DNA from: a virus
DNA: 38,717 bases
Strand: one strand, 5' to 3'
Virus genome (UHGV): UHGV-0007863
Below, in pieces: positions 2,112 through 14,415 of this stretch; position 1 is the stretch's first letter; each line of letters opens with the position of its first letter. The notes under the pieces were generated by a model. That model made no database searches and was not told where the DNA came from. It was given only the letters and a program-made list of their open reading frames with translations. The position numbers were made by a program, and so were the translations under genes.

Positions 2112-2770
2112 GCTGCACGCTCCCGCCCCTGGTTGTCTGTTGGTGACAGCGGAGCATTGCTGAATGCATTTGTTAATCTGGCAATATCCAACGCGTATCC
2201 AGGGTGTAGTTGCACTGCCGGGTCTTCACACTGATTACCCCAAACATCGAAGCCATGAGACGACTGGCGGGCGAACAGTTCAATGCGAGAAACATCGCCT
2301 AACAATTGCACAAGTTTTTCACGAACGACATCTGGTTTTCTTGAGTGCTCAAGCCGCGGTGCGGTAAATGACTGAACGATCCCTGCATTAATGCGCGGAG
2401 GTAGTTTTCCCTTTACCGCAAACAGGCAATCTTCACTATTGGCGCGAGTCATGTGTCCCATACCCATAACCAGTTTATCTGGTTGTCGACTACCACATTT
2501 TATCCACGTGAAGCCCTTCATCGTCATCAGACGAAATCCCCAGGCTTCAACAACTTTTAGTGCTTCGAGTGGTTGTGTTGGCACCCACCACATGGCCAAC
2601 AGACAGTTTTCATCGGCCAAATCCCACACAGGAAGGCGGCAGATATCCAGCACACTCATAACCGGATATTTAAAACCGACACCGCGATTACCATCTGCGG
2701 CTTTGTCCCGGTATACCCAAGGTGGATCTGCATAGATTAGTGTGTATTTCTTAGTCATAAACCACCCCAC
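2108..2770 (-). CDS. MT-A70-family N6-adenine DNA methyltransferase
   Basis: 220 aa; catalytic DPPW motif in IYADPPWVY near the N-terminus; 4-nt ATGA overlap with the downstream phosphatase gene. Confidence 0.8.
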
Positions 2771-3050
2771 AACATCCTATGCCGCTATAGTCGCCACGGC
2801 GAAGGCCGTTACCTTTTGTGATACATTGGTCCCTGCGAACCGCGATCCTTGCACGCTCAACATCACCAGAAGCAACATCCATGCACTGAAGCCAAAGGTG
2901 GGCGGCAATGCGGAACTGCCCTTTTTTCTCTCTTTCAATCGCGCGTTTTTCGATCTCTATCGCCGCAGGAGTAACGGCAACAACCTTTGAAGGGCTGCGC
3001 ATTGAAACCTTGTTCATGTGATATTTTTCAAGTCGGCTTAACTTTCTCAC
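2751..3050 (-). CDS. Hypothetical protein, first gene of the phosphatase/methyltransferase sub-operon
   Basis: 99-aa ORF overlapping the methyltransferase start by 20 nt; an internal Met could be the true start; no recognisable motif. Confidence 0.4.
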   Translation of the reverse strand: MRKLSRLEKYHMNKVSMRSPSKVVAVTPAAIEIEKRAIEREKKGQFRIAAHLWLQCMDVASGDVERARIAVRRDQCITKGNGLRRGDYSGIGCCGVVYD

Positions 3051-3159
3051 TTAATCCAACCCTCTCTGAAAATTAATGCCAGCAGATAAAGCCATGCTGA
3101 AACAGAGGCCAGGAATAAGTACCATCCTGACCATTTGCTCCAGTGCCTTAGCAGCGCAC

Positions 3160-3408
3160 TCATGCAGCGTTGCTCACAGGACGATATACACGTTGCTGAA
3201 CAGGAGGTTTTTTACCCTGGAACTCTGCCGGGCTTGCTGCCTGACGTTCATCAAGCCAACGCTCAACTTCGTCACGGTTCCATGCGCAGCGTTTGTCAGT
3301 GATATACCAGCGTTTAGGAAATTCACCTGCGCGCTCCATACGGTCGATAGTGCTCCATGACAGTGGCACCACCGCCAGGAGTTCCTTCTTACCTAATGCA
3401 CCTTTCAT
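3160..3408 (-). CDS. AlpA-family phage transcriptional regulator / excisionase-like protein
   Basis: 82 aa; LLAVVPLSWSTIDRMERAGEFPKRWYITDKRCAWNRDEVERWL matches the AlpA-type helix-turn-helix pattern. Confidence 0.75.
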   Translation of the reverse strand: MKGALGKKELLAVVPLSWSTIDRMERAGEFPKRWYITDKRCAWNRDEVERWLDERQAASPAEFQGKKPPVQQRVYRPVSNAA

Positions 3409-3457: not shown

Positions 3458-4339
3458 TTACATAGATGTTTCGTTTAATTCTTCCCGACGAACGCTGTAA
3501 ACGTCGGTGGCTTTTGCCAGCAGTTCGTCATCATCTGAAAGTTTTTGTGCAATGTATTTGTAAGCCTTATCCAGTTCGGAGACAGTGCTGTAATTCATCG
3601 CTGCGCTGGTAAAGGCCATCAGCATTTCTTCTGGATCACGGCTATCCGCTTTACGCGTTTGCTCATCAGGCTTTTTCGCTGGTTTAGCGTTGATCAGACT
3701 GTTCATTCCCGCAGCAGTGGTCGTTTGCGGAGTAATGTCTCGCTCAACGCGCGGTGCCGTTTCCTGTAATTCGTCAGGGGTGTAAACACCGAGAAGTACA
3801 TCAGGAGCGTGCAGGCGAGCCCATCGTTTCGTGCAAAGATAGGCAAGCTGCTGGCGCGGATCCTGTTCCCACAATGGAGAGTTACGCACTCCGGCTTGCG
3901 CCATACTGATGGTAAGCTCACGGGGTTCTGCTTCTCCTTTAAGAACTGCTGACACAGTTACCGTCAGATTCGGTGATTTATCTGTTTTGCCGTTAACATT
4001 CGACCAGTCACCGCTCCAGCGATAATTCAGGCGTGTCGCTAGCAGGCTGGAAGAGGATACGACCGCGTTTACCAACTGTGCTTCGTAGCCTAACGTTCCG
4101 TTTACCACATGCGTTTTCTGCGCCACGGCGAAAGGGTTCATTCCCCACTGTGCCGCCTGCATGGTCACCGCCAGACAATCGGCAGGTTTGCCTTCAAGAT
4201 GTTTCGGTACAGTCGCTTTGCTTTGTGACATCAACTCCGCGAAACGCACCAGTTGATTCATGCCCTCCGGGCTGAAGATTGCCGCAGCAGTACCTACAGT
4301 TGCGCCTGGTTGTGATGTGATTGCGATATCATTGCTCAT
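3458..4339 (-). CDS. Single-strand annealing protein, Bet/RecT superfamily
   Basis: 293 aa; segment AAQWGMNPF resembles the lambda Bet core (ANQYGLNPW); 4-nt overlap with the upstream exonuclease gene. Confidence 0.65.
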   Translation of the reverse strand: MSNDIAITSQPGATVGTAAAIFSPEGMNQLVRFAELMSQSKATVPKHLEGKPADCLAVTMQAAQWGMNPFAVAQKTHVVNGTLGYEAQLVNAVVSSSSLLATRLNYRWSGDWSNVNGKTDKSPNLTVTVSAVLKGEAEPRELTISMAQAGVRNSPLWEQDPRQQLAYLCTKRWARLHAPDVLLGVYTPDELQETAPRVERDITPQTTTAAGMNSLINAKPAKKPDEQTRKADSRDPEEMLMAFTSAAMNYSTVSELDKAYKYIAQKLSDDDELLAKATDVYSVRREELNETSM

Positions 4340-5157
4340 ACGTACATATCCTGTTTACGTGCCCAGTCAGGGCGTTTAATAATTTCCACTCCGCCCCATT
4401 CATCGTTGATGCGGCATTCGTGATAGGTATTCAGATCCCGGCGGAACAGAGCGTGCCCGGCATCGACATCTGGCGCATCCAGCTCGAACACGCGTACCGG
4501 ATACCGACCACAATCAATGCTTTCGCTCACGGCAAGAAAGAAAAAACCATGCGGCTGACCAGTAACCCTCATTGCGCCTTCGCGGTACATTGCGTCCTGC
4601 ACGTGGTAGCGGAATTCCTCGATGTGGCGTGCAAAACGGTCCATATCTGCAACCTTTTTCACGTCGACGATCACGTTGTGCTCGTTCAGCCATTTGTCTG
4701 GACGAATTCGGCACAACTCACCCGTCTCTTCATCGTTCCAGTACATTGATGCTTCGCAGTAACCAGGTGCTTCCAGCATCCAGCGTGCCGCCGGGTGAGC
4801 CATTGCGCTATCACGCATCAGCTCCAGTTTTCGCCACTGCTCGACATCAAGTACCGTAATACCCATATCCGCCACATCACGAAGAAATGCTTCTTCGTCA
4901 GCTTTACCTTGTTTTGTCCGACGATCGAACTTCGGTGAAACAATGAAGCGTTTGTCGAATTCTCCAGGCTCCAGAAGCAGACAGTGCAATGCGGTTCCCA
5001 TATCCAGTGCAGACTTTTTCTCTTCGTCTTCTGGTGCTGCCTGAACCCATTTCAGAAGGGCAGGGTTCTTAGCCACCATATCTAGCTGCGACTTACTCAC
5101 GCCGTCACCGGCGTGGTAGTCCTCGTTGCTGATATCGAAATAAATTCCCGGATTCAT
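4336..5157 (-). CDS. PD-(D/E)XK exonuclease, RecE C-terminal-domain-like partner of the annealing protein
   Basis: 273 aa; D-x-K signature (IVDVKKV) and synteny with the annealing-protein gene. Confidence 0.65.
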   Translation of the reverse strand: MNPGIYFDISNEDYHAGDGVSKSQLDMVAKNPALLKWVQAAPEDEEKKSALDMGTALHCLLLEPGEFDKRFIVSPKFDRRTKQGKADEEAFLRDVADMGITVLDVEQWRKLELMRDSAMAHPAARWMLEAPGYCEASMYWNDEETGELCRIRPDKWLNEHNVIVDVKKVADMDRFARHIEEFRYHVQDAMYREGAMRVTGQPHGFFFLAVSESIDCGRYPVRVFELDAPDVDAGHALFRRDLNTYHECRINDEWGGVEIIKRPDWARKQDMYV

Positions 5158-5761: not shown

Positions 5762-6346
5762 TTATTGTTTGCTTTTTTCGTTCTGGTTGATGACAAATTC
5801 AATGTAACTTTCGATCTTTGCTTTCTCGGTTTCGGGTAACAATGCGTAGCGTGAGCGGTCATAGTTGATAGTCGCAGGGTCGTGCGGGTGAATCAGTAGT
5901 TCATATCCGTGACGCCCGAATGCGGATGCAACATTCTCCAGGGTGGAAATGGAAACGCTGACCTCATTGTTTAACAGGCGGCTGATTGTCACCTGGGCGA
6001 CGCCGGATGCGCGGTGAAGTTTTCCCTGTGTTGAAAGGTCGCGGCTTTCGCTCATCCAGCGTTCCAGGTTGTGAGCCGCCAGCTGACCTATATCGCTCGG
6101 GCCGACAGGCTGAAAACCCTCCTGAGAAAGCGAACGATCAATATCAAGCCAGTTACGGGGTTTATTGGCGGCAGCTTCAATTTTTCGTGCAACCTGGTCG
6201 CCGATAACCTTCTTGCCAAGAGCCCAGCGGTTTACCAGATTTGCCTGAGTTCCAAGTTTTTCTGCCATCCGCGTCTGAACACCATTGAATTCACGGTCGA
6301 TCAAGTCGTTGAGATTTTGCCTGCGGACGTCCTGGATACTTTTCAT
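5762..6346 (-). CDS. Prophage repressor (CI-like) with two HTH-like segments and no recognisable S24 peptidase domain
   Basis: 194 aa; HTH-like segments GVQTRMAEKLGTQANLVNRW and SGVAQVTISRLLNNEVSVSISTLENVASAF; no Ser-Lys dyad domain seen; divergent from a cro-like gene. Confidence 0.7.
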   Translation of the reverse strand: MKSIQDVRRQNLNDLIDREFNGVQTRMAEKLGTQANLVNRWALGKKVIGDQVARKIEAAANKPRNWLDIDRSLSQEGFQPVGPSDIGQLAAHNLERWMSESRDLSTQGKLHRASGVAQVTISRLLNNEVSVSISTLENVASAFGRHGYELLIHPHDPATINYDRSRYALLPETEKAKIESYIEFVINQNEKSKQ

Positions 6347-6879: not shown

Positions 6880-7092
6880 TTGAAGATAGTAACCAGAATG
6901 GAGGCCGCAAAAGCCGGGTTAAATCGCTATTTCACAGGAAAGCGGTGCCGTCACGGCCATCTCTCTGAAAGGTATGTTCTGAACGGAACATGTGTTGAAT
7001 GTGCAATGAATAGCGCCAACCGCCATCGTAATGAATTTGCTTGTGCACTAAAGAGTGCAAGAGGGGAAACCTATGGCAAGCAGCTGGATTAA
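6880..7092 (+). CDS. Small Cys/His-rich protein at the cII position
   Basis: 70 aa with C-x-H-G-H ... C-x-x-C spacing suggestive of zinc binding; TTG start with GGGG upstream; overlaps the initiator start. Confidence 0.4.
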   Translation: MKIVTRMEAAKAGLNRYFTGKRCRHGHLSERYVLNGTCVECAMNSANRHRNEFACALKSARGETYGKQLD

Positions 7093-7903
7093 GGTTGAAG
7101 TTATCACTCCTGATAAACCTGAAATTTTTCAGATAGCAGAAATTCTGGGTATTGATCCAGATGCTGTTCTTGGAAAGCTGGTTCGTATATGGGCATGGGC
7201 TGACCAGCAAACAATAGACGGTAACGCTGGCAGCGTTACAAAAGGAGTACTTGATAGACTCGCTTTTATTACAGGATTTGCTGACGCCCTCATTAGCGTC
7301 GGATGGCTTGCTTATCATGACGGCAAACTAATTCTTCCAAACTTTGAGCGACACAATGGAGAATCATCGAAAAAACGTGCACTTACGAATAGAAGAGTGG
7401 CAGAGCATCGAAAACGAGTAACGCAAAAAGTAACGCCAACAGCGTTACAAAAGGAGTTACCAGAGGAAGAGGAAGAGGAAGATATATATAAAACCCCACA
7501 CATAGCGCACGTGCGCGAGGGTGCTCCGACCAGTGAAGCGAACGGTATGCCGTTGCAGGTGGCTGAACCTGAATTTCTGGATGGCCTGAGTGAACCCATC
7601 GGGAAATTTCCGATGACCGATGGCTGGCATCCGTCGCCGGATTTTCGACGGCGTGCTGCGCTGTGGGGAACGGCCCTGCCGGAACCGGAATTTACACCTG
7701 CTGAACTTGCTGCATTCCGGGATTACTGGATGGCTGAGGGCAAAGTGTTCACGCAGGTTCAGTGGGAACAAAAATTCGCCAGGCACGTAAATCATATCAG
7801 GGGAAAATCAAAAAACGCCGGGAAAAGCGATGAGCTTGACTGGAATAACACTGACTGGATAGAAGGGGTGTGGGATGAAATCAACTCCAGAACTTCTCAA
7901 TGA
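7073..7903 (+). CDS. Putative replication initiator (O-like) with internal iteron-like repeats
   Basis: ATG at 7073 with AGAGGGG Shine-Dalgarno; lies immediately upstream of the P-like gene; acidic linker PEEEEEED; function inferred from synteny and the internal repeats. Confidence 0.55.
   Translation: MASSWIKVEVITPDKPEIFQIAEILGIDPDAVLGKLVRIWAWADQQTIDGNAGSVTKGVLDRLAFITGFADALISVGWLAYHDGKLILPNFERHNGESSKKRALTNRRVAEHRKRVTQKVTPTALQKELPEEEEEEDIYKTPHIAHVREGAPTSEANGMPLQVAEPEFLDGLSEPIGKFPMTDGWHPSPDFRRRAALWGTALPEPEFTPAELAAFRDYWMAEGKVFTQVQWEQKFARHVNHIRGKSKNAGKSDELDWNNTDWIEGVWDEINSRTSQ
7221..7494. repeat. Candidate origin of replication inside the initiator gene
   Basis: GTAACGC half-sites at 7221(+), 7233(-), 7418(+), 7430(+), 7442(-); two copies of a ~28-bp unit GTAACGC-N5-GCGTTAC-AAAAGGAGT (7221-7248, 7430-7457) read in different frames; then (AGAGGA)x3 at 7462-7479 and an AT-rich GATATATATAAAA. 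Confidence 0.4.
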
Positions 7904-8651
7904 GTACGATCGCTTACGTGAGCATGGTGTTGCTGTGCATGAAGAGCGGCGTGACAGCAATGGCAAAAAGGAGCAGGTTGCTAGAATTTTCAATGAACTA
8001 TTTGTCCAGTTACAGGCTGCATTTCCTGCAAGCGTTTCGACCATAAGGGAGCAGAACAAACTTAATGAATTCCGTAAGCAATGGATGCTTGCGTTTCTGG
8101 AGAATGGGATCACAACAATGGAACAGGTTAACGCTGGTATGCGCCACGCCCGCGCCAGTGAATCTCCGTTCTGGCCGTCGCCAGGGCAATTTATCAAGTG
8201 GTGTAAAGACAGCAAGATGGTTCTTGGCGTCACCATTGACGATGTGATGGCGGAGTTTCACCGGTACAGCAAGGAAAAAAGTTTATATCCTGGTGGTCCC
8301 GAAAGATTCCCGTGGCGGCATCCGGTTATGTACTGGGTCGTATGTGATACCCGCCGTGCAATGTATCAGCGCCAGCTTAGCGAGATTGAGGTTGAGAAAC
8401 ACGCGCGCAGGCTGCTCGATGATTGGGCGAAAAAGGTGGCTTCCGGACAGCAGATACCCGATCCGGTGATCAGCATACAGGCAAAGCCAGAGCCCATGAG
8501 TACACCTCCGGACACAGGGAGAGACGTTTACCACCCGCCAGGGCGAAGTTTCGGGTGCATGCCTAACGCCGCCACCCTGGGGGGAATAACACCGGCGCAG
8601 TGGCTGATGGAGGAATACAGGCGGGGAAAGGCGGCAGGATTTATCAAGTAA
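7875..8651 (+). CDS. Lambda P-like replication protein (replicative helicase loader)
   Basis: 258 aa; FPAS..REQNKLNEFRKQWMLAFLENGITTMEQVNAGMRHARASESPFWPSPGQFIKWCK closely parallels the lambda P N-terminal region as recalled. Confidence 0.8.
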   Translation: MKSTPELLNEYDRLREHGVAVHEERRDSNGKKEQVARIFNELFVQLQAAFPASVSTIREQNKLNEFRKQWMLAFLENGITTMEQVNAGMRHARASESPFWPSPGQFIKWCKDSKMVLGVTIDDVMAEFHRYSKEKSLYPGGPERFPWRHPVMYWVVCDTRRAMYQRQLSEIEVEKHARRLLDDWAKKVASGQQIPDPVISIQAKPEPMSTPPDTGRDVYHPPGRSFGCMPNAATLGGITPAQWLMEEYRRGKAAGFIK

Positions 8652-8688
8652 TACCAGCGCGATAGCGCATTTTTTTACGTCTCGATGA

Positions 8689-8765
8689 TTACCTTCTGGG
8701 TAATAAAATATTCTAAAATCTATTGATTTCGTGTCTTATGTGGTTTTTAATTACCTCTTGGGTAA
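8689..8765. promoter_or_regulatory. Two perfect TTACC-N5-GGTAA palindromes (8689-8703, 8751-8765) upstream of the nin-like block
   Basis: TTACC-TTCTG-GGTAA and TTACC-TCTTG-GGTAA; the second ends 3 nt before the ATG at 8769; preceded by a weak GC hairpin plus a 7-T run at 8657-8676. Confidence 0.6.
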
Positions 8766-8768
8766 ATC

Positions 8769-9113
8769 ATGAGAAAACAGATACAGGCTCTTGGTCGACT
8801 CAAAACAGGCCAGATGAACAAAACAGAATCTGCGTATTGCCAGCACCTTGAGCAGCGTAAACGTGCAGGGGAAATCGCCTGGTATCGATTCGAGGGTATC
8901 AAGCTGCGGTTAGCTGACAACACGTTCTATACGCCCGATTTTGCTGTGATGCTCGCCACCGGCGAGATGGAACTGCACGAAGTGAAAGGTTTCTGGACCG
9001 ACGACGCCAGGGTGAAAACCAAAGTCGCCGCAGATCAGTATCCGTTCCGAATCATCGGGGTAACGGTTAAACCAAAGAAAGCAGGTGGTGGCTGGAACAT
9101 CGAAGAGTTCTGA
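8769..9113 (+). CDS. DUF1064-like protein (nin-region family, possible nuclease fold)
   Basis: 114 aa; pattern KAGEI..W.FE...L.....YTPDF.V......E..EVKG matches recollection of the family. Confidence 0.5.
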   Translation: MRKQIQALGRLKTGQMNKTESAYCQHLEQRKRAGEIAWYRFEGIKLRLADNTFYTPDFAVMLATGEMELHEVKGFWTDDARVKTKVAADQYPFRIIGVTVKPKKAGGGWNIEEF

Positions 9114-9174
9114 ATCGACGATCTTTTTAGTTATCAATGTAATCAATAAGTTATGTGGATAAGCGAGGGTAAAG

Positions 9175-9717
9175 ATGGAAAGTAATATCAAAGGGTTAGT
9201 TTCCGCCGGGCATGAGATGGCTTCGGAACTGAAAGCAGAATGTGGTGCCGTTGATATGCGTAGTGTGGCAAAGCTGATCAGCGATTTGGCAACGAAACTG
9301 GAAGTGCAACTGGTGCGTGCTAATGCGCTGGCGGCGGAGAATGCTGGGCTGAAAAAGTTCTGTGAAGACGCAGCGTTTGATGCTGATTATGAGTCAGAAC
9401 TTCTTGGAGAACGCGGTGGATTTGTTGATGGGCTTAGCTTGGTAAAAACCCCAGCCACCGACGCTTTCCTGGCTGAAATTCGTGCGGAAGCACGCAACGA
9501 GGGAGTTAACTATACCGCCAGCCGTCTTGCTGCTGCGTTCAATCACGGATTTATCAATAAGTCTTTGCGTGAAGTTTTCGACGTTACACGCATGATTTTG
9601 TCAGCGAAAGAAGAGTTGGCTAATGAAGCGCATCCGATTGATGGCCTGTCTGGTGAATATGCGGAGAAATCCCTTGAAGAATGGGCGGAACAGATTCGCA
9701 AAGGAGCTGACAAGTGA
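9175..9717 (+). CDS. Hypothetical protein
   Basis: 180-aa ORF, co-oriented with neighbours; no motif recognised. Confidence 0.5.
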   Translation: MESNIKGLVSAGHEMASELKAECGAVDMRSVAKLISDLATKLEVQLVRANALAAENAGLKKFCEDAAFDADYESELLGERGGFVDGLSLVKTPATDAFLAEIRAEARNEGVNYTASRLAAAFNHGFINKSLREVFDVTRMILSAKEELANEAHPIDGLSGEYAEKSLEEWAEQIRKGADK

Positions 9718-10124
9718 AGAAGATGATTTTTATCGCGGCATTGTTGGTGAATATCCAACAAGTGCATGCTTCAGCAGCTATTGTAGCCTCTACCGCCGCG
9801 ACTACGGCTGCTGTAGCTGCTGCGAACTCTGCGAATATCGCAAACCAACAGGCACAGCGTGCTGCTAATGCATCAGCCAGCGTTCACTCAATCACCATTA
9901 AGAGCAGTAAGCAAAATCTGGGATTCATAACGTGCGGCACGCGTTCTAATGAAGCTGTAGGTTCACTTGGATGTACGGTATATGGGGGTAGTGAGAATAG
10001 AGAAATTCCATGGAAAACGTGGCCCGGATACGTTCTTGGCTCGAAGCTCCCGGCCAGTTATGAAGTAAACGCCGTATCGTTTGATCACTATAACGGCGTG
10101 GCAACGGTCTATTTTGCATATTGA
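9714..10124 (+). CDS. Small secreted protein with an Ala/Thr/Asn/Gln low-complexity linker
   Basis: 136 aa; signal-peptide-like N-terminus MKKMIFIAALLVNIQQVHA|S; Cys-containing C-terminal domain ending in aromatic YFAY; GTG start overlapping the upstream stop. Confidence 0.5.
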   Translation: MKKMIFIAALLVNIQQVHASAAIVASTAATTAAVAAANSANIANQQAQRAANASASVHSITIKSSKQNLGFITCGTRSNEAVGSLGCTVYGGSENREIPWKTWPGYVLGSKLPASYEVNAVSFDHYNGVATVYFAY

Positions 10125-10132
10125 GGCTCCGC

Positions 10133-10666
10133 ATGAAATTCTCCAAATTTTCTGAGTTGGTGAATCGTATTTTGTTGAATCGTATTTTGTCCAACAACCA
10201 CAGCCATCGTCGCGATATGGATGTAACGATCGTTGTTCATTCGCCTGGCAGCATTGGTTCAACACCCTCAGTTGAGGTTCAGTCAATTCACGCTGGTTTT
10301 GATTGGGATTCCGGGAAAGTGCTGATTTTCCCAGCACAGCCACTGACCACTCTAACACCAGAACAGATTACTGATATTACTGATAGTGTGCGCAAAGGTC
10401 AGTCCTGGCACGCATATCAGGAATACAAGAAGCATAAAGAGCAGTTGGAAAAATTATCGATTGAACTTGATACCGCAAAACAGCGCATTGCAGAGCTGGA
10501 GAGCAATCGCGCGGCGCTGGCGGCGGAGCATGGTATTCAGATTGCAATAAATGAACTGCTTGCTCTGGCCCCGCGTCTGGATAAACGAGCGGTGGATGCA
10601 CTCTCTGTGGCTGTGGAGCACCTGTGTAAACTGATTAAGAAGGAGGCAGTCAGTGAGCAAAATTAA
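10133..10666 (+). CDS. Hypothetical coiled-coil protein
   Basis: ATG at 10133 preferred over TTG at 10121; C-terminal heptad-like region; contains an in-frame tandem 15-bp duplication at 10160-10189. Confidence 0.5.
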   Translation: MKFSKFSELVNRILLNRILSNNHSHRRDMDVTIVVHSPGSIGSTPSVEVQSIHAGFDWDSGKVLIFPAQPLTTLTPEQITDITDSVRKGQSWHAYQEYKKHKEQLEKLSIELDTAKQRIAELESNRAALAAEHGIQIAINELLALAPRLDKRAVDALSVAVEHLCKLIKKEAVSEQN

Positions 10667-11381
10667 TTACCAGGCACTGCGTGAGGCGGCAGAGAAAGCA
10701 ACGTGGGGAGACTGGGACTCATATAAACCACACCGTGGCGCACGTGGTTATAAGGTCCGACTAAGTGGTCAGGCCATTGCGCAACACGTTCTGAAAAACA
10801 ACGCTGAATTTATTGCTGCCTTTAATCCAAAGGTTGCTTTGGCATTACTGGATGAACTGGAAAGAAACCAGCAATACATCAAATCTCGCGACCAGGAGAA
10901 CGAGGATATTGCGCTAACGGTAGGGAAGCTGTTAATCGAAAACGGTCAGCTTGTTGCCGATACGCTACGCCACTTAGCTGATAACGAAATCGACTCTGAT
11001 TATTTTGCTATCACCTCAACTAATGAGAACGGTACTGAAATTGATCATGAGATGTCTATTACCGATTACGCACTGCAAGCTGCCGGAACTGTAGACGAAT
11101 TGGTTGCGGCGCTGGAAGCCGCAAAATCAAAACTCAACGAGCAGCGTGAATATTACGAGGGAGTAATCGCGGATGGAAGTAAGCGCATAGCAGAGTTAGA
11201 AAGTGGTTCTCAGGCACAAAAGTTAGTTGAAGCAATCATTGTTGCGATAGAAAACGAACAGGAACGTCTTTTTGATGAAGATTACCTAATGGATTCGAAA
11301 GAATGCATTGACGTAATTCGTGAAGAAGTAAAGCGATGGAATGATTCCCGCGCCGCTGGCATTCGCATCAAAGGAGAGTGA
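10653..11381 (+). CDS. Ead/Ea22-like accessory protein
   Basis: 242 aa; N-terminus ...ALREAAEKATWGDW... as recalled for the Ea22-like family; acidic coiled-coil content. Confidence 0.45.
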   Translation: MSKINYQALREAAEKATWGDWDSYKPHRGARGYKVRLSGQAIAQHVLKNNAEFIAAFNPKVALALLDELERNQQYIKSRDQENEDIALTVGKLLIENGQLVADTLRHLADNEIDSDYFAITSTNENGTEIDHEMSITDYALQAAGTVDELVAALEAAKSKLNEQREYYEGVIADGSKRIAELESGSQAQKLVEAIIVAIENEQERLFDEDYLMDSKECIDVIREEVKRWNDSRAAGIRIKGE

Positions 11382-11382
11382 G

Positions 11383-11793
11383 ATGAACGCTATAACCAAA
11401 GAACGTATCAAATTATTCATTAAAAATCCGCTTGATAACGGACTTACTCGTGGCGAACAAATGGAACTGGCACGAATTGCTCTGGCATCGCTGGAAGCAG
11501 AGGCAGTTATGTTCTGTATATCAGGACAAAATGTAGATTCAGAAGAACATGTATCAACCAGCAAAGCGGTTGTTGATGCCTGGGTTGAAGAATGGAATCA
11601 GGTTGACGGAAGTCCTGGCGAACCACTGTACAAAACTATGCCACTCTACTATCACGCTGCCTTGCCAGCGCCGGTAGTGCCGGATGAAATGTATTGGCAG
11701 GATGCGCCAGTTGAAGGCAGCAGCAAAGCGGCTGCATACGCTACAGGCTGGAACGCCTGCCGCGCCGCTATGCTTCATGGGAAAGGAGAGTGA
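11383..11793 (+). CDS. Hypothetical protein, short paralog of the 12069-12833 gene
   Basis: 136 aa; first ~40 aa near-identical to the protein at 12069 (MNAITKERIKLFIKNPLDNGLTRGEQMELARIALASLEA); shares the GWNACRAAMLH motif; AAGGAGAG Shine-Dalgarno. Confidence 0.55.
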   Translation: MNAITKERIKLFIKNPLDNGLTRGEQMELARIALASLEAEAVMFCISGQNVDSEEHVSTSKAVVDAWVEEWNQVDGSPGEPLYKTMPLYYHAALPAPVVPDEMYWQDAPVEGSSKAAAYATGWNACRAAMLHGKGE

Positions 11794-11795
11794 TA

Positions 11796-12058
11796 TGGCA
11801 ACTTTAACAAAAAAAGAACGGGCATGGTTGAACGAATTACAGGACGTTCTTGATCGCTGCCCATCACCGAAAAAAATTGGTTTTTACACCATTGGCGATA
11901 AAAGCATTTACCTGTATGACCTGCGCCGCATGGATGAAATCATGGAGGCTCTTGATAATCGTTCGTCAATGGATTGGTGTGTTGCTGTCCATGATATGAA
12001 TGCAGGGTTTGATGAAAAGATTTTGTTCCCCTCATCAGTTGAAAGCACTGCGGGTTAA
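11796..12058 (+). CDS. Hypothetical small protein
   Basis: 87 aa; ATG at 11796 directly after the upstream stop, preceded by the same AAAGGAGAGTGA junction seen at 11370-11382. Confidence 0.45.
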
Positions 12059-12068
12059 GGAGTAACAC

Positions 12069-12833
12069 ATGACCACTATTACCAAAGAACGTATTGAATT
12101 GTTCATTAAAAATCCGCTTGAAAACGGGCTTACCCGTGGTGAACAAATGGAACTGGCACGGATTGCGCTGGCATCGCTGGAAGCAGATCCAGTTAAACGA
12201 GTTAACTCAGATCAGATGCGCCGAGTCTGCTTAGAAGCTAATCGCCATTTAGATAAATATGACGCGATGGCGAAAGAGGTAAATAAGTTGCTTGGACGCA
12301 TCGCCCCGCCAGCGCCGTTATTGCCGGAGGAAATGACACCAAAGCAAGCGTCACGTTCATATTGCGGAGAAGTTCGCGGTTATCGTGATGGCTGGAACGC
12401 CTGCCGCGCTGCCATGCTTCATAGTGCCGAACCTGCAAGTAATCATGAAGAGTTGCCGCTTGATTATCTCCAAGGTCAAAAAGATGGTCTTGAATGGGCT
12501 GCGCAGCTTGCAGAAGCAAATCACCCACAAACTGGCGACTGGCTTTACGATGACCCGCTGGAGCTGGCTAAAGCTATCAGAAAAGGTCCTGACATGCCCG
12601 AATTCGATGGACCAACTCCGGGAACTCCGGATGGTTGGATAAGCTGTAGTGAGCGAATGCCGGAAGAAACGGGTGACATTATTGTTGTTTCGGATGGCAT
12701 TGTAATGTCAGGGATTTCTTATTCTCGTCGTGACGGGTTCTATATAGCCGCATTGGAGTACGACGACGATGAGCCAATTGGCGGTGTAACCCACTGGATG
12801 CCTCTACCAGAACCGCCGCAGGAGGTGAAGTGA
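12069..12833 (+). CDS. DUF551-like protein
   Basis: 254 aa; C-terminus ...GGVTHWMPLPEPP matches the DUF551 hallmark as recalled; N-terminus paralogous to the 11383 gene. Confidence 0.6.
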   Translation: MTTITKERIELFIKNPLENGLTRGEQMELARIALASLEADPVKRVNSDQMRRVCLEANRHLDKYDAMAKEVNKLLGRIAPPAPLLPEEMTPKQASRSYCGEVRGYRDGWNACRAAMLHSAEPASNHEELPLDYLQGQKDGLEWAAQLAEANHPQTGDWLYDDPLELAKAIRKGPDMPEFDGPTPGTPDGWISCSERMPEETGDIIVVSDGIVMSGISYSRRDGFYIAALEYDDDEPIGGVTHWMPLPEPPQEVK

Positions 12834-13183
12834 TGGACTATTCACAGTTAAGTGATTTTGAAATTAACAGAATGGTAGGAGACATAATTTTTAAAGGCCT
12901 TTGGGCGTGTAAACCGGAAACATCAGGGAATAACACCAACAAATGGTATTACGGAAATACTGATACAACTTTTGAGCCATTAAACCCTTTACCTGACTAC
13001 TGCAATAATCCATCGGATGCATGGCCTATTATTGTTGATAATAAAATCAGTCTAACCTGCCACCACTCTCGCGGTGAGTGGTCAGCTGTTTTTAATGCCG
13101 AGAACATTTGCTTTCATGCGAATAATCCACTCCGAGCCGCCATGATTGTATTTCTCATGATGCAGGAAAATCAGAATGGCTAA
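12830..13183 (+). CDS. Hypothetical protein (conserved nin-region type)
   Basis: 117-aa ORF with overlapping stop/start; Cys-containing, no catalytic motif recognised. Confidence 0.5.
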   Translation: MMDYSQLSDFEINRMVGDIIFKGLWACKPETSGNNTNKWYYGNTDTTFEPLNPLPDYCNNPSDAWPIIVDNKISLTCHHSRGEWSAVFNAENICFHANNPLRAAMIVFLMMQENQNG

Positions 13184-13514
13184 ATCAGCAGCAGAGCGCA
13201 AAGCCGCTCAGAGAGCCAGACAAGCTGCATCCGGTGTACGTAAGCTGGAGATTGTGCTTGATGCTCAGGAAATTGAAATGCTGGAGCGGAACTGCGCCAC
13301 GCGTCGCCCCGGGCGTGTGCCTTACGAATTTGGTGAGTATATTGCGTTACTTATCCGCCAGGATGATGCACGTGTGCGCGGGCGTATAAAATCGATCAGC
13401 AGAAAACTTTGCGGTAAGTGCGGCGAGAGAGTTCCCGTTAATTCATGCCCGTGTAATGGTGACTCGCAATGCTGGGTGACTAAAGGCTGGCATGAAACGA
13501 AATTAATAGTGTGA
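13176..13514 (+). CDS. Small basic protein with C-terminal Cys cluster (zinc-ribbon-like), at the position where lambdoid phages carry Q
   Basis: 112 aa; basic N-terminus; C-x-x-C ... C-x-C ... C cluster; function not assignable from sequence. Confidence 0.5.
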   Translation: MAKSAAERKAAQRARQAASGVRKLEIVLDAQEIEMLERNCATRRPGRVPYEFGEYIALLIRQDDARVRGRIKSISRKLCGKCGERVPVNSCPCNGDSQCWVTKGWHETKLIV

Positions 13515-13522
13515 CATGTCAC
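13511..13522. repeat. 12-bp perfect palindrome GTGACATGTCAC, copy 1 of 3
   Basis: Read directly; overlaps the TGA stop of the 13176-13514 gene. Confidence 0.7.
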
Positions 13523-13531
13523 GAAGGTGTT

Positions 13532-13744
13532 ATGCCAAAAATACGCTACGACCTTGAAGATATGAGAGATAACTCAGCAAATTTTCCGAAAGAGGTTAAA
13601 TTTCTCATGCATAAGTATGGTTGCGCCAGGAGGGATATAGTTATCGACAGTCAGCACCCTTGCGGCGAGGATGTAATTTTCATTCGCGGTAAATGGGAAG
13701 GGTATCTTGACGAGAGTTTTTACGATGAATTTGATGGACTTTGA
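13532..13744 (+). CDS. Hypothetical protein
   Basis: 70 aa from ATG 13532 with GAAGGTG upstream; the ORF-track GTG start at 13511 lies inside the palindrome. Confidence 0.45.
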   Translation: MPKIRYDLEDMRDNSANFPKEVKFLMHKYGCARRDIVIDSQHPCGEDVIFIRGKWEGYLDESFYDEFDGL

Positions 13745-13749
13745 ATACT

Positions 13750-13776
13750 GCCGCCAACTATGGCGGCTTTATTTTG
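13750..13776 (+). terminator. Rho-independent terminator immediately upstream of the terminase operon
   Basis: GCCGCCA-ACTA-TGGCGGC followed by TTTATTTT. Confidence 0.6.
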
Positions 13777-13786
13777 CATGGTACTA

Positions 13787-13819
13787 TTACCACAACGGTA
13801 ACTATTACCACGGTGGTTA
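13787..13819. promoter_or_regulatory. Perfect TTACC-ACAAC-GGTAA (13787-13801) plus near copy TTACC-ACGGT-GGTTA (13805-13819) abutting the terminase small-subunit start
   Basis: Read directly; located between the terminator and the ATG at 13819. Confidence 0.6.
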
Positions 13820-14415
13820 TGATGCCTGCTGAACCTAAAACCTATAAACGCAAATCAACGCAATTTAAGCCACTAACAGCAATGCAGGAGGCTTATTGCC
13901 AGTCATACATCAAAACGCCTGAAAACCAGACTCAGGCAGCGATTAATGCAGGATTCTCCCCAAATACAGCGGCAGTTAAAGCCAGTGTCATGATGCGCGA
14001 TGAACGCATTCAAAAACGGATTGCCGAGTTGATGGAGGAGCGCAACAAACGAATGCGCGTCAGTGCTGATTACGTTCTCATGCGCCTGGTGGAGATCGAC
14101 CAGATGGACGTGATCGACATCCTCAACGACGATGGGAGCCTTAAGCCAATCCGCGAGTGGCCGAAAATCTGGCGCACTACGCTTAGCGGCTTTGATCTGT
14201 CATCGACCATCATGAACATGAACGAGGATTCGATAGAGACAATCCTCAAAAAAATTAAATGGCCTGACAAGGTGAAGAACCTCGAACTGATTGGTAAGCA
14301 CGTCGACGTCAACGCATTCAAAGAACGCCTGGATGTTAATGTGAATGTGACAATTGCTGATCGCATAGCAGCAGCCAGGAAGCGACTCAAAGAACGTCAG
14401 GATGGTAATCAGTGA
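13819..14415 (+). CDS. Terminase small subunit
   Basis: Segment QEAYCQSYIKTPENQTQAAINAGFSPNTAAVKASVMMRDERIQ fits the small-terminase HTH family; true start taken as ATG 13819, since the ORF-track N-terminus is encoded by the operator repeats. Confidence 0.8.
   Translation: MMPAEPKTYKRKSTQFKPLTAMQEAYCQSYIKTPENQTQAAINAGFSPNTAAVKASVMMRDERIQKRIAELMEERNKRMRVSADYVLMRLVEIDQMDVIDILNDDGSLKPIREWPKIWRTTLSGFDLSSTIMNMNEDSIETILKKIKWPDKVKNLELIGKHVDVNAFKERLDVNVNVTIADRIAAARKRLKERQDGNQ

Follow-up and report, generated by a model that had tools for sequence, protein, structure and literature searches.

A candidate portable gene-boundary linker and the probable shuffling of accessory cassettes in a Uetakevirus prophage

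Introduction

Module exchange among phages by homologous recombination at short boundary sequences was put forward by Susskind and Botstein (1978), and the analysis of phage HK620 by Clark et al. (2001) supported such exchange, as both works are summarized in later papers (PMC3233612; PMC2327257). The shortest segments reported to pair efficiently measure 23-27 bp with Red-beta and 31-34 bp with RecA (PMC3945230), and RecET has been reported to be active on 5-13 bp (PMC2327257). Mosaicism within phage proteins has been described as well, including variable C termini of Ea22 proteins, DUF551 as a 'portable domain', and a terminal +GE tripeptide (PMC10834534; PMC7093339). Here we analyze a 38,717-nucleotide stretch of viral DNA, the genome UHGV-0007863 (hereafter the window, meaning the whole stretch), whose accessory gene block carries two copies of a 12-nt sequence, AAAGGAGAGTGA, each followed by N-ATG. 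We propose that AAAGGAGAGTGA-N-ATG is a portable gene-boundary linker, and that recombination at its short homology probably shuffles accessory cassettes among phages and prophages.

Such a linker would do three jobs at once. It would provide the last three codons (Lys-Gly-Glu) and the TGA stop for any upstream gene, an AAGGAG Shine-Dalgarno sequence with 6 nt between GGAG and ATG, and the start codon for any downstream gene, so that any cassette joined there would be in frame and translationally coupled within an operon that has no promoter of its own. Where the same 16-28 nt stand between many genes of co-resident phages and prophages, recombination would be able to swap, insert or delete cassettes.

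Results

The two linker copies of the window, and the genes that they join, are arranged as follows.

10653-11381, + strand: Ead/Ea22-like gene, 242 aa, ending in RWNDSRAAGIRIKGE and a stop (Pfam PF13935, E 9e-35)
11334-11385, + strand: extended junction repeat, copy 1 (WNxxRAA...KGE-stop-N-ATG), to be compared with 11746-11797
11370-11385, + strand: linker copy 1, AAAGGAGAGTGA-G-ATG, with the K-G-E codons, TGA stop, AAGGAG and the next start
11383-11793, + strand: short paralog, 136 aa, with N-module, variable middle, PAP...GWNACRAAML module and GKGE before the stop
11782-11797, + strand: linker copy 2, AAAGGAGAGTGA-T-ATG
11795-12058, + strand: 87-aa cassette gene (phrog_1714, a function-unknown PHROG)
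12069-12833, + strand: long paralog, 254 aa, with N-module, middle, GWNACRAAML module, spacer and DUF551 domain

The sequence AAAGGAGAGTGA is present exactly twice in the 38.7-kb window (11370-11381 and 11782-11793), even when one mismatch is allowed, and both copies are followed by N-ATG. Shuffled sequences are expected to contain 0.12 matches, and two or more were found in 0 of 100 shuffles, which rejects a chance repeat as the source of the two exact copies. At copy 1, the TGA at 11379-11381 terminates the Ead/Ea22-like open reading frame (ORF) and the ATG at 11383 opens the 136-aa ORF. At copy 2, the TGA at 11791-11793 terminates the 136-aa ORF and the ATG at 11795 opens the 87-aa ORF. Both upstream ORFs (10653-11381 and 11383-11793) end with AAA GGA GAG TGA, the next ATG follows one base on, and the putative AAGGAG Shine-Dalgarno sequence leaves 6 nt from GGAG to ATG. 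The Ead/Ea22-like protein matches PF13935 over the whole length of the model (120.7 bits, cut-off 27), and its exact sequence is found on 113 contigs.

An initial annotation, made from the letters alone, had stated that the same junction closes the Ea22-like gene and the short paralog, and this holds for the two copies at 11370-11381 and 11782-11793. It had also placed a new gene directly behind the GWNACRAAMLH motif of the short paralog; the gene is there, but its ATG lies at 11795 rather than 11796. Of the two roles that it gave to the junction, that of stop codon is seen directly in both ORFs, and we infer that AAGGAG acts as the ribosome-binding site. The repetition extends beyond the 12 nt, with 36 of 52 positions equal between 11334-11385 and 11746-11797, and therefore the protein tails RWNDSRAAGIRIKGE and GWNACRAAMLHGKGE are homologous. 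Neither an inverted repeat nor an attC-like structure was found at or near the junctions.

The same linker stands between many other genes. Twelve loci were chosen by BLAST similarity to the region rather than by motif, and 11 of them carry AAAGGAGAGTGA-[G/T]-ATG between differing gene pairs. A scan of IMG/VR for the 16-mer yielded at least 120 loci. When these are joined with the similarity-retrieved loci and chance matches are set apart, the resulting connected set holds at least 81 sites at which at least 16 upstream families and at least 17 downstream families meet in at least 48 combinations. The upstream proteins include those with the ends AAGIRIKGE, ATGIRIKGE, NIGIKGE, NRWKNHLRTKGE and GWNACRAAML[HQ]GKGE, each followed by the stop. 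The downstream proteins include those that start with MNAITKERIKLF, MATLTKKERAWL (the 87-aa gene), MNGQISIVRP, MALTHRELCQ, MAIAASYTMH, MTTFTDKELI and MIHYHGGPIT.

The positions at which homology ends fall at the linker itself; all values in this paragraph refer to the matches listed. At every related site the linker contains both the codon that stops the upstream ORF and the one that starts the downstream ORF. Ten of the 16 upstream families have a 5′ extension, (GGC)ATTCGCATC. Beyond the 16-mer used as the query, conservation reaches about 9-12 nt upstream and is absent past the ATG, such that pairwise identity is at background (~0.25) beyond roughly 12 nt upstream and right after the ATG. 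When two sites have the same upstream but different downstream genes, homology is gone 0-3 nt past the ATG in 149 of 156 pairs, and when they have the same downstream but different upstream genes, it mostly ends within the 30 nt that precede the linker. Base N, a G or a T, follows the downstream gene (conditional entropy H of N given that gene, 0.24; permutation minimum, 0.43). Because N tracks the downstream gene more closely than the upstream gene, most crossovers should have occurred inside or 5′ of the 12-mer. Tracts of perfect identity that cross the linker, at sites that differ on both sides, have a median length of 18 nt, with 36% reaching at least 23 nt and 8% at least 31 nt. The linker thus has the marks of a boundary sequence: it is short DNA common to otherwise non-homologous modules (the 12-mer with N-ATG, between at least 16 and at least 17 families), it is located at the gene boundary, and breakpoints coincide with it while its partners reassort.

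To avoid ascertainment by the motif, a second search used only the first 25 nt of the 87-aa gene as its query; it replaced a codon-usage scan of ORFs ending in [KR]GE and a stop, most of whose sites were motif-ascertained. Invariant AAAGGAGAGTGA precedes 53 of the 54 sites anchored in this manner, behind at least 9 different upstream genes, and no synonymous variants of the K-G-E codons are found among them. A single sequence family covers -20 to +279 at these sites; the count is 9-10 upstream of the linker and 15-18 past about +400, where the N-module ends. These jumps at the linker and at the N-module end define the travelling unit as the linker, the 87-aa gene and the N-module (11795-12195), with a conserved segment at either end. 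In prophages of Escherichia, Salmonella, Klebsiella, Enterobacter, Edwardsiella, Pectobacterium and Serratia, the 87-aa protein is conserved and keeps a constant length. AlphaFold predicts an alpha/beta fold for this protein (predicted local distance difference test, pLDDT, 91), for which the PDB offers no match (best E 1.7) and BFVD a single significant match, to one unnamed viral protein.

The comparison for presence or absence of the inserted cassette that the initial annotation had suggested is provided by the E. coli plasmid p702_18_3, which corresponds to the window minus exactly the 412 nt between the linker copies. From window position 9451 to the first ATG, the plasmid differs by 3 mismatches in 1935 nt (99.8% identity), and it then passes straight into the 87-aa gene and the sequence behind it, which differ at 6 of 540 nt (98.9%). 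The segment that it does not carry is precisely 11386-11797, and these 412 nt equal the spacing of the two linker copies. Its junction reads AAAGGAGAGTGA-G-ATG-GCA, with the N base of copy 1 and the first codon of copy 2. The polymorphism is one of presence or absence of the 136-aa gene or, equally, of the 412-nt repeat unit. A lambdoid prophage of strain AVS0787 has 11348-12194 in common with the window at 99.4% identity, and both flanks are different. The annotation's proposal of recombination at a conserved linker is thus supported by at least 48 gene combinations, by breakpoints at the linker and by the 412-nt insertion or deletion.

The Ea22-like gene of p702_18_3 (2754-3302 of the retrieved plasmid segment), 99.8% identical to that of the window, has been annotated as a pseudogene 'missing C-terminus'.

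The distribution of the linker was assessed with a 34-mer that includes the 5′ extension (11352-11385). This 34-mer is present in 1420 of 5426 complete E. coli genomes (26%), where it occurs at 1820 places, up to 6 per genome and 127 of them on plasmids, and also in 168 phage records. The linker is found in Stx1, Stx2 and Salmonella phages, in HK620 between hkaG and hkaF, and in large phage and plasmid records of ~95-115 kb such as RCS47 (115 kb) and SJ46 (103 kb). A scan of species-representative genomes with a 25-nt extended linker gave 4 loci (two Escherichia species, Shimwellia and one Segatella contig), although with one genome per species this set is too sparse to define host range. The Segatella locus is a 3.3-kb contig of a 'Segatella copri' metagenome-assembled genome (JAJXBQ010000292.1) that carries the extended linker together with an N-module 98% identical to that of the window, and it is most likely a mis-binned fragment of an enterobacterial phage.

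In phage lambda (1500-1720 of the extracted locus), the linker ends ea22 and is followed by GATCGG with no ATG (GAGTGAGATCGG). Approximately 190 nt of non-coding DNA then separate it from ea8.5. This post-linker sequence (GTAAAAGATAACGCTTGTGAAAATGCTG) stands behind an intact TATG in two IMG/VR loci, with the frame broken by a stop. From this pattern, the post-linker DNA of lambda looks like the remnant of a decayed cassette.

Modules that recur elsewhere also make up the two paralogs, within which the following segments are distinguished.

11383-11509, + strand: N-module copy 1, 'short-type' allele, 89% identical to copy 2
11659-11778, + strand: PAPxxPxEM...GWNACRAAMLH module copy 1, containing direct repeats 11659-11691 and 11746-11778
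12069-12195, + strand: N-module copy 2, 'long-type' allele
12303-12422, + strand: PAPxxPxEM...GWNACRAAMLH module copy 2
12633-12821, + strand: DUF551 domain (Pfam PF04448, E 4e-15, residues 189-251)

Overall identity between the 136-aa and 254-aa proteins is 47% (E 5e-33). As noted in the initial annotation, the proteins that start at 11383 and 12069 agree over their first ~40 residues (35 of 40 equal, 89% identity of the N-module DNA) and have a common GWNACRAAMLH motif (identical at 11 of 11 positions); their middles are unrelated. The DNA itself is repeated directly in three segments: 11371-11509 with 12057-12195 (139 nt, 86%), 11659-11691 with 12303-12335 (33 nt, 85%), and 11746-11778 with 12390-12422 (33 nt, 94%). 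Given that synonymous divergence between the N-modules is only pS = 0.26, the DNA-level repeat goes beyond what the protein similarity requires, in keeping with the self-comparison that the annotation had called for. The short paralog, which has no Pfam match and no DUF551 domain and ends 4 residues past GWNACRAAMLH, is related only to the N-terminal part of the DUF551-family long paralog (DUF551 score 56.8 bits, cut-off 22). Its PHROG matches (phrog_5117, phrog_60 and phrog_660) are all function-unknown.

The annotation's description of tandem paralogs is correct with regard to adjacency and homology. The pair is not a recent local duplication, as the N-modules represent two allelic lineages, each widespread in its own right. 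The short-type N-module is 96-100% identical to copies in four other loci and ~88% identical to the long type, and its homology with other phages stops at 11496-11516. The long-type N-module is 97-100% identical to copies behind the 87-aa gene in six loci. Because each N-module is closer to the copies of other phages (96-100%) than to its neighbor (89%), the paralogs appear to be united by cassette assembly rather than by a recent tandem duplication.

The PAPxxPxEM...GWNACRAAMLH module forms a stand-alone block of homology (11665-11777) in three other loci. The body of the short paralog (residues 1-133) is joined elsewhere to the spacer and DUF551 in three rare proteins of 96-99% identity, and therefore what follows GWNACRAAML can be the GKGE-stop linker or a DUF551 tail. 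Thus, exchange has also taken place inside genes, at the N-module end (about 11502-11516 and 12186-12195) and after GWNACRAAML, and the long paralog is a mosaic of at least four segments. The two paralogs would then be mosaic products of the same process acting at the 127-nt N-module and at the GWNACRAAML module, after which the KGE-stop linker or the DUF551 domain would be attached.

The exact 136-aa protein is found on at least 1000 contigs, including ST131, and the exact 254-aa protein on 3 contigs, where it forms a singleton cluster at 90%. An assembly artefact is rejected for the latter because the 3 contigs are independent and have the gene order of the window. The AlphaFold model of the long paralog, built from a 39-sequence alignment, is unusable (pLDDT 41.7).

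Two further observations concern these genes. RefSeq/PGAP splits the intact 136-aa gene of E. coli AVS0787 (2536-2928 of that prophage locus, equal to window 11383-11793) into two pseudogene fragments, labeled 'DUF551... missing C-terminus' and 'hypothetical... missing C-terminus', which is probably an annotation artefact of the mosaic. Annotators should be aware that pipelines mark an intact and very common gene in this manner. In addition, DUF551 domains (12633-12821 and 17 homologs) have near-invariant edges, TPDGWISCSERMP and THWMPLPEPPQEV, around a hypervariable interior of variable length. Judged by its alignment, this pattern looks like a diversified core flanked by conserved, recombination-prone ends.

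A second conserved boundary is located where the long paralog ends.

12786-12838, + strand: second boundary, PLPEPPQEVK and stop, CAGGAGGTGAAGTGATG; the stop overlaps the start of the NinX-like gene
12833-13183, + strand: NinX-like gene (Pfam NinX)

DUF551 genes end in WMPLPEPPQEVK and a stop, with CAGGAGGTGAAGTGATG placing the Shine-Dalgarno sequence in the last codons. This boundary is kept in five other loci with different downstream genes. Unlike the KGE linker, the second boundary (PQEVK and stop) tolerates many sequence variants, and because it does so, the invariance of the KGE linker is not simply typical of any junction of Shine-Dalgarno sequence, stop and start.

The window is a prophage of the phiV10/epsilon15 type (Uetakevirus). 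Its first 24 kb are ~98% identical to podoviruses of this group over 77-83% of the length of those genomes, the matched relatives being vB_EcoP_ZX5, HEMP4, TL-2011b, PAS61 and phiv142-3. The accessory block sits between the replication genes and the terminase genes.

193-1449, + strand: integrase, an ordinary prophage Int with an arm-binding domain
1452-2111, - strand: metallophosphoesterase, between the integrase and the recombination genes
2108-2770, - strand: MT-A70 family methyltransferase, between the integrase and the recombination genes
3458-4339, - strand: RecT-family single-strand-annealing recombinase (Pfam PF03837, E 1e-31)
4336-5157, - strand: PDDEXK-type exonuclease, the RecT partner (DUF3799; Pfam PF12684, E 2e-21)
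5762-6346, - strand: helix-turn-helix (Cro/CI-type) DNA-binding protein, probable repressor
7055-8651, + strand: DnaT-like and P-like replication genes
8769-13744, + strand: densely packed, small, co-oriented ORFs
from 13741, + strand: terminase

Scans of 8500-14000 revealed no promoter-like site on the + strand inside the block, and terminator-like matches were at the level of shuffled sequence, with no convincing intrinsic terminator inside the block. The block is therefore one operon whose genes depend on coupled translation. An Rfam scan of the same interval (E ≤ 1) produced a chance microRNA match only and no RNA element at the junctions. Searches of NCBIfam, PADLOC and PDB sequences with the proteins of the block gave no matches, and no defence or anti-defence assignment is therefore made for them. 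Among 50,697 phage genomes and 5,426 complete E. coli genomes there is none that covers at least 80% of 10400-13200. Pieces of this interval are present in thousands of phage and E. coli records, and the region is a fine-grained mosaic.

Two small ORFs of this operon deserve mention. The ORF at 9714-10124 (136 aa, phrog_8805), which is also carried by plasmid p702_18_3, has a hydrophobic, signal-peptide-like segment at its N terminus (MKKMIFIAALLVNIQQVHASAA); its product may be a 'moron' of the accessory operon that is secreted or located in the envelope. The ORF at 13511-13744, just 5′ of the small terminase gene, is the phrog_1541 match of the window and corresponds to Pfam Phage_T4_Y11B in the precomputed annotation of an identical metagenome contig.

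Discussion

The most far-reaching interpretation of these data is that the linker-bounded ORFs form a genuine mobile-cassette system, a translational-level counterpart of integron cassettes or of the mini-circles of T4 PeSL elements, in which circles are excised or captured from prophages at a high rate and reinserted at any linker copy. We consider this unlikely. If true, reinsertion targets would exist in lambdoid phages, phiV10-type phages and large phage-like plasmids, excision and capture would take place during replication and might be actively promoted, and at least a quarter of E. coli strains would have a common 'plug-and-play' pool of accessory genes. An integron-type cassette as such is rejected because there is no inverted repeat near the junctions and the sole integrase is the prophage Int. 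A PeSL-type element is rejected because 8500-14000 holds no + strand promoter and the junctions no terminator-like or inverted repeat.

At the opposite extreme, the junctions could have arisen by illegitimate recombination that needs no homology, with selection afterwards for genes that are intact (the Hendrix model). The linker would then be no substrate of recombination, and would be kept by functional convergence or purifying selection as a good combination of stop, Shine-Dalgarno sequence and start. The core is indeed a canonical AAGGAG at ideal spacing, coupling matters in a block that has no internal promoters, the median identity tract of 18 nt is short, and other junctions of the block, such as the DUF551 end, vary their partners with different layouts of Shine-Dalgarno sequence and stop. 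However, identity is also found at positions that are irrelevant to the ribosome, namely GTGA and the 5′ ATTCGCATC (the latter in 10 of 16 upstream families among the matches listed). Moreover, 53 of 54 downstream-anchored sites are equal at all 12 positions while the DUF551-end junction is variable, the endpoints of the 412-nt insertion or deletion lie exactly in the repeat, and illegitimate joins are unlikely to hit the same nucleotide repeatedly with at least 48 partner combinations. For these reasons, we judge the Hendrix model to be a rather improbable account of the linker.

Recombination at the linker, which we favor, faces several difficulties of its own, and the case for it is built on sequence-level criteria. 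The 12-16 nt core is shorter than any measured minimal length for efficient pairing, and the median identity tract measures no more than 18 nt. The 16-mer search fixes the core by ascertainment, and the downstream-anchored test lifts this effect only partly because it concerns one cassette family. The sites are not phylogenetically independent, and the combination counts therefore overstate the number of events. Furthermore, the linker is not obligatory, given that phiV10 has a variant (GGCATTCGCATC-AAAGGAGGTGAGTAATG) and that an unrelated junction precedes the 87-aa gene in one locus. Finally, a strong ribosome-binding site and stop may be selected for in their own right, which could help to hold the core constant whether or not recombination occurs.

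The lengths of the identity tracts and the RecT/exonuclease pair encoded in the window point to phage single-strand-annealing recombination. Candidate enzymes would be RecT with its exonuclease here, and Red-beta, Erf or Sak4 in relatives. Exchange would thus be homology-driven and RecT-mediated.

A dedicated enzyme is the basis of another possibility, in which the linker is the recognition site of a recombinase or nuclease, akin to an integron attC site or a homing-endonuclease target, and cassettes move site-specifically. The strikingly invariant core and the precise joins would fit this idea, and mini-circle formation by T4-type PeSL elements offers a precedent (PMC2839356). We regard it as very unlikely, however, because the junctions have no inverted-repeat or attC-like structure at or near them, the only integrase is the ordinary prophage enzyme at 193-1449, and no recombinase or nuclease gene accompanies the cassettes, be it in lambdoid phages, in Uetakevirus or in the ~95-115 kb phage and plasmid records. 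In addition, crossover positions vary within and 5′ of the linker, as they do in homology-driven exchange.

Equally hard to sustain is the suggestion that the C-terminal peptide (+GE or IRIKGE) is selected as a tag or interaction motif of Ea22-type proteins, with the DNA identity as a by-product. In a published alignment all Ea22 proteins end with K/R-G-E, 'significance unknown' (PMC7093339), and lambda retains the motif without a following ATG, both of which agree with selection on the peptide. Yet KGE is the terminus of several distinct families, namely Ea22-like coiled-coil proteins, the short paralog that lacks DUF551, and proteins ending in NRWKNHLRTKGE. Sites anchored on the 87-aa gene start show no synonymous codon variants, and in the connected set, among the matches listed, the stop always comes directly after the motif, with a start codon 1 nt further on. 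The Arg variants of the literature would presumably retain the AGGAG core (AGA or CGA followed by GGA-GAG). Because the codons show no synonymous variants and the motif ends proteins of separate upstream families, the K/R-G-E terminus of Ea22 proteins would more plausibly be the Shine-Dalgarno sequence of the next cassette, read in the upstream frame. The published puzzle would then resolve as an in-frame Shine-Dalgarno sequence with no peptide motif.

A recent local tandem duplication as the origin of both paralogs and both junction copies, suggested by adjacent, co-oriented, homologous genes with repeats spaced 686/644 nt apart, is hardly credible and is contradicted by the data, since the two copies are not each other's closest relatives (N-modules 89% identical to each other and 96-100% identical to those of phages carrying only that type), the paralog middles are unrelated, the junction copies lie 412 rather than 686 nt apart and flank different genes, the same linker occurs in hundreds of phages with other partners, and the short form is found on at least 1000 contigs and the long form on 3.

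What, then, does probable exchange at the linker add to the understanding of phage mosaicism? It provides a nucleotide-exact and unusually clean case for one side in the debate over whether modules are exchanged homologously at conserved boundaries or joined illegitimately and then selected. Because the linker is short, ubiquitous and present in lambda at the end of ea22, this old question becomes directly testable in the best genetic system available.

The linker can be compared with several systems described previously. The Ea22 and DUF551 proteins of the lambda exo-xis region belong to the same families as those encoded in the window block. The block, however, is located in the replication-to-terminase operon of a podovirus, whereas the Ea22 and DUF551 papers concern the exo-xis region. 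Those papers follow the mosaic in the proteins and offer no explanation of +GE, whereas here it is traced to a linker at the nucleotide level.

The PeSL cassettes of T4-type phages (Arbiol et al., 2010; PMC2839356) resemble the linker in that hyperplastic regions hold non-essential ORFs between short repeats of an expression signal. There, too, recombination between repeats inserts, deletes and replaces genes, and direct repeats could release a circle, which would measure 412 nt in the window. A PeSL, however, consists of a promoter and a terminator stem-loop and is intergenic, whereas the linker has neither, lies inside the upstream coding sequence and would act at the level of translation.

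Rad52-like relaxed recombination (Martinsohn et al., 2008, PMC2327257; De Paepe et al., 2014, PMC3945230) likewise produces mosaic exchange through short or diverged homology. The likeness extends to the RecT encoded in the window and to the third of site pairs, among the matches listed, with tracts of 23-33 nt, a Red-beta-type length. Those studies describe 'shoulders' of at least 100 nt with 70-80% identity, whereas a very short, near-invariant block at a fixed functional position is found here.

The closest counterpart is the boundary sequence of lambdoid phages. Like these sequences, the linker is short, is conserved between unrelated modules, lies at gene boundaries where breakpoints coincide, and is proposed as a site of homologous recombination. 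Unlike them, it is defined to the nucleotide and quantified (at least 48 combinations; 26% of complete E. coli genomes), it occurs in lambdoid and phiV10-type phages as well as in ~95-115 kb phage and plasmid records, and it encodes a stop, a Shine-Dalgarno sequence and a start. Given that HK620 carries the linker, it may already be listed in Clark et al. (2001). The linker is a clear and well-documented example of the known exchange at boundary sequences, rather than a new kind of system.

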